From assembly GCA_024137785.1 (NCBI GenBank), contig JAHRHZ010000070.1, positions 1,501,296-1,565,295 on the forward strand: a stretch of DNA of 64,000 nt, given 5' to 3'. Shown in pieces: positions 17,270 to 54,800 of the stretch (positions within the stretch are counted from its first letter, which is position 1; every line of letters starts with the position of its first letter). The notes below the pieces were generated by a model. That model was given only the letters and a program-made list of their open reading frames with translations, made no database searches and was not told the DNA's origin. The stretch is from Ginglymostoma cirratum (Eukaryota). The position numbers were made by a program, and so were the translations under genes.

Positions 17270-17480
17270 CATGGTAGTGTCATGGTTATGTCCCTGTGTA
17301 GCCAACCCAGAGGCTCAGGATCAATTCTCTGGGGACATGGGTTCAAATCCCACCAGGGCAGCTGTTGGAATTTGATTTCAAATGATAAATCTAGAGTGTG
17401 ATGATGATGATATCAATGGTCATAAAACCCTATCTGGTTCACTAATATCTTTTAGGCAAGATAAGCTGTCATCCTTATCT
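17270..17480 (+). mobile_element. Same tRNA-SINE family, 5' half; host of the Penelope-like hairpin
   Basis: ggggacatgggttcaaatcccaccagggcagctg...aaaaccctatctggttcactaat. Confidence 0.7.
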
Positions 17481-17702
17481 AGATAGCAAGGTGTAGAGCT
17501 GATGAACACAGCAGGCTAAGCAGCAACAGAGGAGCAGGAAGGCTGATGTTTCGGGCCTAGACCCAATTTTCTGAAGAAGGGTCTAGGCCTGAAACGTCAG
17601 CCTTCCTGCTCCTCTGATGCTGCTTGGCCTGCTGTGTTCATTCAGCTCTACACCTTGTTATCTCAGATTCTCCAGCATCTGCAGTTCCTACTATCTCTGA
17701 AA
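17481..17702 (+). mobile_element. Penelope-like fold-back insertion with a minimal hammerhead ribozyme core and a target-site duplication
   Basis: Inverted arms at 17481-17564 and 17579-17663. CTGAAGA-AGGGTCTAGGCCT-GAAA-CGTC at 17571-17598. Flanking duplication CATCC(T/G)TATCTAGAT at 17470-17484 and 17703-17717. Confidence 0.8.
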
Positions 17703-17814
17703 CATCCGTATCTAGATGTTCCTCTGCAAAGTGGTTCAGGTTTAGCTGTTCCAAGAAATGCCATGCACTTCATAACGGATGGACAACAAAAGAATAAAGA
17801 CAAGTTGTAGGAGC

Positions 17815-17927
17815 AAATTACTGAAATCTGTACTGAAAGCAACAAATGCTGGAGATCACAGCAGGTCGGACAGCATCAATTGAGAGTTAGCAAGCTACTG
17901 GTTTCTAGTCTAGATGACTCTTCATCC
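17815..17927 (-). mobile_element. Related Penelope-like terminal fragment with a degenerate hammerhead
   Basis: aatgctggagatcacagcaggtcggacagcatc family motif. Minus strand GATGA-AGAGTCATCTAGACTA-GAAA is a decayed core. Confidence 0.55.
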
Positions 17928-18090: not shown

Positions 18091-18176
18091 CTATTGTGTG
18101 GCCTGGTGCAGCGACTGCTGTGGCGGGCCCATCCGGTGAGGGATGAAAAGGCTGTTGCACTTTGGTCCGAATGATC
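18091..18176 (-). CDS. PAX2: Pax2 exon 4 ([28 protein letters not shown])
   Basis: Acceptor tttgtttgcag|G and donor G|gtaaga; 86 nt. [14 protein letters not shown]......PGHTI is Pax2-type. Confidence 0.96.
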
Positions 18177-53389: not shown

Positions 53390-53580
53390 GCCAGGCAGCA
53401 TCAGAGGAGCAGGAAAATTGTTGTTTCGGGTCAGGACTCTTCTTCAGACCCTTTTTTCTGAAGAAGGGTCCCAACCCGAAATGTCAACTTTCCTGCTCCT
53501 CTGATGCTGCCTGGCCTGCTGTGTACATCCAGCTCCACACTGTGTTGTCTCTGACTCCAGCATCTGCAGTTCTTACTATC
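53390..53580 (+). mobile_element. Second Penelope-like fold-back insertion with hammerhead cores
   Basis: Inverted arms at 53390-53448 and 53457-53515. CTGAAGA-AGGGTCCCAACCC-GAAA-TGTC at 53458-53485. Same tail as the 17481 element; ACAAAGAA occurs on both flanks. Confidence 0.75.
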
Positions 53581-54681
53581 ACAAAGAAGTAAGGAAATGG
53601 CATGAGTTTCTCCATCTCAAGTTTCTGCATGCTGGAGGCAGGAATGTTTAGTTTCCTCTACATAATGCTGCTGCACTGTACTGTAGATTTGTATCTACTT
53701 TATTTTACTTTCTCTCAATGTCTAGGATTAGAATGGTTAGGTGGTTGTTTTTGACTGGCGAAGGGCCTTCTTCTGTCTTGCCAATCTCAATGACTCAATG
53801 ACATTATGTCTGCCTGATGTGATAACTCTTTCCAATTGGTTAACATTTAATCATTCATTGACTTTGTTTAAAGTCTAATTTATTTTCCTTCTTCCTTCAA
53901 TAATATCAACATTGATCATCTTAATCAAGGAAAAGCTCCAATTAACACAATTTCATAAATGTCAGCTTTCCTCAGAAAAGTTACTTCATCAGGTTCATCC
54001 CTCCAGTCGACCAACTACTACCAGTGTCCACTATCACCACCATTCTGCCTCCACCACTTACCACACCCCCTCCCACTTTGATGCACAGCTACTCCTACCC
54101 TCACATCCAGCCCTTTCCTTCAGATGCTGCATGGCTTGCTGTGTTCTTCCAGCCTCCCGTTTGACTACTTCTAACCCCTAACTAGTGCCGAAGCTATCCT
54201 GTGGAGTCGAAGCTCCTATGGTTGAAATTTCTACTGAAATCAAGTGTTGTATTTGTGAAGCATCTTTTTGAACAACAGAATGTCTGAGAACAAGTTTAAC
54301 CAACAATTACTTCCAAAGTACAGACACAGTTCTAACATCGGTAAATAATCTATGGTAGAGTTACATTTTCTTGCAGGTACAATATTGAATAGTGCTGGAA
54401 ATGTTGGTGGTGCCCTAGAAAGCATGTCCCTGTAGGGATCAATGAGGAAAGGGAAGATGGTTTCGTAGGAAGTTGCATTTTTGACAGGAGGAGATAAAGA
54501 ACGCCAGGAGGTAAGTCGACTTGCATTGTTTGACTTGTCTGGGTCCAATGGGTGAGACAAGGAAGTGACTGACAGCAGAAACTGGGAGGTACATGTCAGG
54601 AAGGGCTGTGAGAGAGTGAGAATTGCAGAACATGTCCATAGGGTTATTGTCTAATGCAAAGAAACCTGAACACTGATATAT

Positions 54682-54800
54682 TGTTTCAGAGATAGTAGGA
54701 ACTGCAGATGCTGGAGAATCTGAGATAACAAGGTGTGGAGCTGGATGAACACAGCAAGCCAAGCAGCATCAGAGGAGCAGGAAGGCTGACGTTTCCGGCT
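54682..54800 (-). mobile_element. Truncated copy of the same Penelope-like terminal repeat
   Basis: Near-identical to the reverse complement of about 17590-17704. It ends in the hammerhead stem II region (gacgtttccggc). Confidence 0.8.

Follow-up and report, generated by a model that had tools for sequence, protein, structure and literature searches.

Results

A fold-back of two element ends lies in a Pax2 intron

The window analyzed here is a 64,000-nucleotide stretch of the Ginglymostoma cirratum genome (contig JAHRHZ010000070.1, positions 1,501,296 to 1,565,295). It contains, in the Pax2 intron following exon 18091-18176, an insertion with the features listed below, Pax2 being on the minus strand. 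Signed positions are counted from the hammerhead residue C3, and the last two entries are related copies elsewhere in the window.

17278..17484, plus strand: old tRNA-derived SINE (host sequence), ~70% identical to many loci and cut by the insertion
17470..17484, plus strand: left target-site duplication, 15 bp, whose final 4 bases fit the left arm too
17481..17564, minus strand: inverted arm, a pLTR end without tail (~+8 to +92)
17565..17567, no strand: junction between the arm 5' ends, a gap of 3
17568..17702, plus strand: direct arm, a pLTR end with tail (-3 to ~+130)
17571..17598, plus strand: minimal type I hammerhead motif by direct reading, antisense to Pax2
17664..17702, plus strand: tail of ~39 bp, in the direct arm only
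17703..17717, plus strand: right target-site duplication, one mismatch to the left copy
18091..18176, minus strand: Pax2 exon after both paired-box exons, 374 bp from the duplication
53390..53587: another fold-back, from a sister subfamily whose stem II reads GGGU/ACCC, with a one-arm tail, an 8-bp duplication and a decayed ACGU palindrome
54682..54799, minus strand: lone arm with tail, from this family, which shares 97% identity with the direct arm and is cut short within stem II

The locus consists of two copies of an element's pLTR placed 5' end to 5' end, one of them tailed, between target duplications. The paired arms (17481-17564 and 17579-17663) were recovered where the original prediction had placed a near-perfect hairpin, and 5 substitutions and 1 gap separate them over 85 columns (94% alike). 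The hairpin has a fold energy of -185.8 kcal/mol (z -20.7), which 0/200 shuffles equal. The arms thus stand as first described, with one correction to the extent of the structure, since the right arm continues through the tail. The 15-bp duplication with one mismatch that had been noted around the insertion is likewise present, its copies being identical at 14/15 positions. The inverted arm has kept C11.1 and lacks CUGAnGA, as had been said of the copy on the Pax2 strand, and its ACGU palindrome has decayed to ACAU.

Three other candidates for the structure were rejected: an assembly artefact because the arms differ from each other and a target duplication is present, a MITE or DNA transposon because relatives carry RT and the arms are unequal, and a microRNA because the Rfam miRNA matches score under their gathering thresholds and are due to the long hairpin.

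As for the host sequence, the Pax2 exon, which we take to be exon 4 by human PAX2 numbering, lies at the distance of ~370 bp originally given (374 bp when measured from the duplication). The insertion had also been placed inside a tRNA-SINE. This holds for the left flank, which is ~70% identical to copies of the SINE and has, over 17278-17356, a weak match in Rfam that is tRNA-like (E 0.013). It does not hold for the right flank, which matched 0 other loci and lacks the usual continuation of the SINE. About 100 bp from the insertion, at 17816-17927 (minus strand), another Penelope-type family has left a decayed end on the Pax2 strand. Its repeat depth is high and, when read by eye, it shows what remains of a hammerhead-like motif, in which stem II is longer and the first core bases are gone.

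Contigs of two related organisms run along the left flank and into the left arm, to position 17494 in organism A (32 differences in 1,216 bases) and to position 17511 in organism B (68 differences in 1,120 bases). This weakly suggests that the insertion is shared with both. In the look-up for an empty site no contig spanned the insertion, and four runs did not yield the right junction. The right flank at 17718-17815 had no cover in the organism A and B runs while the neighbouring intron was covered, which may be a species difference or a filter gap. The insertion had been called recent. However, since the arms are 94% alike and the duplication is mismatched, a very recent insertion is unlikely, and the contigs that appear to enter the left arm point the same way.

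The hammerhead motif of this copy is predicted to be sequestered

The motif is composed of CUGAAGA (17571-17577), a bulged A (17578), stem II (17579-17590), GAAA (17591-17594) and CGUC, with a predicted cut after 17598. The core letters, the cut position and the orientation antisense to Pax2 are those of the original prediction, two further statements of which have to be revised. The core is not fully intact, since a U at 17590 replaces C11.1, at a CpG, and stem II has a different register, its commonest form in the family being a bulged A followed by GGGU/GCCC. A search with the Rfam hammerhead models, which had been proposed as a check, found no such match: the scan at E<=10 returned 19 matches, none of them a hammerhead. 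The motif call therefore has its basis in the letters as read directly and in PMC4209133.

The G10.1-C11.1 pair, highly conserved according to PMC4209133, is missing from this copy, and so, by prediction, is a foldable stem II. In equilibrium predictions, the probability of stem II was ~0 in 5/5 folded contexts of this copy, including one without the left arm, and forcing the ribozyme fold in the full insertion cost 38.1 kcal/mol. The corresponding values for six intact relatives ranged from 0.02 to 0.86, varying with the flank. The hammerhead of this copy is therefore likely, by prediction, to be locked in the hairpin, leaving the copy inert and ordinary. A role for the ribozyme at this locus is not supported, the motif being antisense, deprived of C11.1 and, in the predicted folds, sequestered.

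The family is very abundant and its hammerhead motif looks maintained

A genome-wide count of the arm, suggested with the original prediction, reveals a very common repeat. A 28-mer from the downstream part of the family has 99,352 copies in the 4.36-Gb genome, the exact core 31-mer has 9,782, and a fold-back apex pattern resembling this locus has 1,345 matches, the reversed-pattern control being 0 in each case. When forty 10-kb stretches at round coordinates on four contigs were sampled, 38 arms were found in 332,940 non-N bases (~114 per Mb), which scales up to a rough genome total of half a million arms. The locus is one decayed insertion among very many, and an ordinary one. It is a fair prediction that the hairpin would form long dsRNA in the Pax2 pre-mRNA, and this would be common to very many such insertions.

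Copies of the family exhibit the core boxes, a bulged base before stem II, a palindromic 15.2-16.2 and an NUH site. In 396,940 bases, with G-U pairs counted, stem II was at least 4 bp long in 21/32 core motifs, against 1/9 in reversed sequence. In an informal comparison of copies, loop II varies freely, U-G/U-A exchange and a 5-bp form of stem II occur, and two-sided changes are few. Judging from these copies, the hammerhead motif looks maintained at the family level. A further abundant hammerhead family was noticed, in which stem II has 5 bp and CGUUA replaces CGUC (loci L137, L141, L142, L150, L155 and L156).

Long copies encode RT and GIY-YIG in a Neptune-type architecture

Long copies run for kilobases upstream of the same end, and in them we read RT (YIDD), the linker CNRRKCYTC and GIY-YIG. 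The linkage of the terminal sequence to an RT and GIY-YIG ORF, a mark of EN+ Penelope-like elements, strengthens the Penelope-like origin and minimal type I hammerhead originally proposed. Among four pieces of long copies, Pfam PF01541 (GIY-YIG) was matched above its cut-off in one (24.4 bits) and the Pfam RT family in none. A PDB search with the RT piece returned a single chance match (E 0.69). The RT call rests on the YIDD and DKG motifs together with a lead from the Atlas, whose nearest clusters are eukaryotic; in some of these, a minority of the members bear RVT_1 and GIY-YIG.

Past the tail, the element goes on into the beginning of an ORF and a DKG motif, and is arranged in tandem after an upstream copy. 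Loci L176 and L168 show this tandem pLTR arrangement: an upstream copy, then a pLTR, then the ORF start. The front of the ORF was seen behind a pLTR at ~1,591 places, many of which are short front pieces joined to another pLTR copy; L176 and L179 extend more than 1.5 kb into the ORF. At another locus (L022), the sequence just past the arm suggests that one Penelope family has inserted in another, since by eye it resembles what is presumably the end of a Poseidon-type endonuclease.

Neptune elements have a CX2-5CxxC linker between RT and the C-terminal endonuclease, which is found here as CNRRKCYTC before GIY-YIG; Nematis has the linker too. The succession of DKG, RT, Cys linker and GIY-YIG is the architecture of Neptune/Nematis (PMC8557442), and the vertebrate Penelope-like clades reported are Neptune and Poseidon (bioRxiv 10.64898/2026.07.22.740005). 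The assignment of the element as a Neptune-type Penelope-like element is supported by this architecture, which sets the putative clade in place of a tree. We found no description of a shark family of this kind in the papers searched; the supplements of PMC4209133 or bioRxiv 10.64898/2026.07.22.740005 may list one.

Most fold-backs combine one tailed and one untailed arm

We assembled a set of 36 complete fold-backs from 167 loci, many of them chosen by pattern, and the window. Arm 3' ends fall into two groups, ~+92 and ~+126 to +131 from C3, between which lies the tail (30-40 bp), and an arm ending at +112 or beyond was scored as tailed. A tailed arm is paired with a short one in 26 fold-backs and with a more truncated one in 8, leaving 1 short-short and 1 tail-tail pair. 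Mixed tailed/untailed arms are thus seen in 26/28 fold-backs (p 1.5e-6 against the ceiling of 0.5 under independent choice). A target duplication of 8-19 bp flanks 25/36 fold-backs, compared with 14/1,260 mismatched pairs. Short gaps or overlaps are found at the apices of most fold-backs, and the junctions differ from copy to copy. The combination known from EN+ Penelope-like elements, an inverted 5'-truncated copy with a tail at one end and a target duplication, is found at this locus and in the set of 36 fold-backs.

The 5' ends were scored in 83 arms unselected for their 5' part, with 27 arms left out for N or edge. They lie at -6..-1 in 23 of the 52 arms that reach -1, or ~0.074 per base versus 0.003 upstream, and around the cut site in 4/76 arms. 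Among 30 loci with the ORF front, 25 were scorable and 7 of these start at -2..-4; pieces from the element's front thus show the fixed start too. Taken at face value, genome-wide counts of 21-mers, 50,021 just upstream versus 55,771 in the core, do not fall sharply. However, the upstream 21-mer adjoins the core in only 30 of the first 100 core matches. Since different subfamilies are sampled, these counts neither confirm nor refute the 5' spike.

Discussion

We conclude, with a probability of about 0.82, that the insertion is a fold-back made up of two short terminal stretches from an abundant Neptune-type Penelope-like element, likely dead on arrival, with a passenger hammerhead that is predicted to be unfoldable. 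An inverted end, a one-sided tail and a target duplication form the published insertion signature of Penelope-like elements (PMC3846280, PMC8557442), the tail being described in PMC8557442, PMC3846280 and PMC11167929.

Such an insertion could arise as follows. The RT-endonuclease of the element would make a staggered cut, 15 bp apart, and the 3'-OH on each cut strand would prime its own cDNA, starting at one of two internal sites (~+93 and ~+130) on uncut RNA. Both cDNAs would run to or near the front of the RNA (~-3) and would be joined by host repair. The copy has decayed since, with two CpG changes in the motif. The template would have been uncut, since both arms at this locus cross the scissile position. 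From the mixed arms in 26/28 fold-backs and the pile-up of 5' ends before the ribozyme, which fit two cDNAs made from both sides of one staggered cut, we infer this general course. The putative priming steps are carried over from the anole Poseidon protein, which belongs to a different clade. That protein cuts and extends both target strands, uses uncut RNA, starts reverse transcription at two internal sites bounding the tail and is a predicted dimer (PMC11167929). The probable RNA start at ~-3 is read from the ends of DNA copies.

We give a little under even odds to a more specific form of this scheme, coupled twin priming, of which the many short fold-backs would be a record and in which a dimer of the RT-endonuclease primes both strands in a coupled manner, always one per start site, on uncut RNA whose front lies 3-5 bases before the hammerhead. 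If true, the inverted pLTR and one-sided tail of all Penelope-like insertions would be explained in one step, and the ribozyme would not set the ends of the template.

A single cDNA might instead fold back at the apex and prime its own second strand, the endonuclease then trimming one end to leave the tail. Palindromic inverted junctions have been read as self-priming in rotifer Penelope (PMC3846280), the tail has been ascribed to endonuclease resolution (PMC8557442), and the short gaps or overlaps at most apices fit. However, if a tailed first strand snapped back, the tailed arm should in every case extend furthest 5', whereas it does so in 16 fold-backs, the other arm in 11 and both equally in 7. 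Solo arms, moreover, terminate at either 3' site. We therefore find self-priming unlikely, at about one chance in four.

Much less probable is a non-autonomous, ribozyme-bearing mini-element, retrozyme- or MITE-like, spreading as a unit, which is close to what had been claimed at the outset. The 1,345 apex matches show a few recurring spacers and the 5' and 3' ends are uniform, as such a unit would have. Yet spacers range from 1 to 8 bases, arm lengths and junctions vary, and every copy has its own target duplication. Furthermore, 5' ends lie away from the cut site, unlike those expected of circles from self-cleavage, and the arms are head-to-head, whereas non-LTR retrozymes are tandem (bioRxiv 10.64898/2026.07.22.740005). 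Least probable, by a small step, is co-option of the hairpin or ribozyme for Pax2 regulation (dsRNA editing, splicing or cutting of antisense RNA): an 84-bp duplex does lie 374 bp from a splice donor and the insertion may be old, contigs of two related organisms entering the left arm from the left flank, but arms and motif have decayed in the ordinary way, an intronic insertion is unremarkable at ~114 arms per Mb, and the core is antisense and, in the predicted folds, sequestered.

The locus is of little importance in itself, and the statistics of the family are more interesting. Little is understood so far of how Penelope elements insert, and the asymmetry of the tail and the fixed 5' end amount to two sharp predictions for the existing in vitro system. 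The abundance of the family implies a heavy genomic load of intronic hairpins and hammerhead motifs.

Compared with known systems, the insertion resembles non-LTR retrozymes in being non-coding and pLTR-derived with a type I hammerhead (bioRxiv 10.64898/2026.07.22.740005). It was rejected as one, since those consist of tandem units set head to tail, each unit carrying a hammerhead, whereas the locus is a single inverted pair with one core and ends off the cut site. Like the minimal hammerheads of metazoan Penelope-like elements (PMC4209133), the motif has CUGAnGA, an extra base before stem II, GAAA, a palindromic 15.2-16.2 and no stem III. In contrast to them, its stem II is 4 bp and its stem I 2-3 bp, and this copy lacks G10.1-C11.1 and a same-strand partner. 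EN+ insertions (Pen2a_Av, PMC3846280; scheme in PMC8557442) share the head-to-head pLTRs, a 30-40 bp one-arm tail, a target duplication and a palindromic junction. The shark locus differs from Pen2a_Av-type insertions in having two pLTR ends only, with no coding sequence, and target duplications are 8-19 bp in the shark family versus 8-10 bp there. As in Poseidon PAc of Anolis carolinensis (PMC11167929), two 3' ends bound the tail and lie within an RNA that continues into the ORF, and copies run across an uncut ribozyme site. PAc belongs to another clade, and its ORF starts in stem II, whereas the shark ORF starts past the tail; in the text consulted, PMC11167929 does not describe the start sites on the two strands as coupled. 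Finally, the long shark copies are like the Neptune clade (PMC8557442) in combining DKG, RT, a CX4CX2C linker and GIY-YIG at the C terminus with a pLTR hammerhead.
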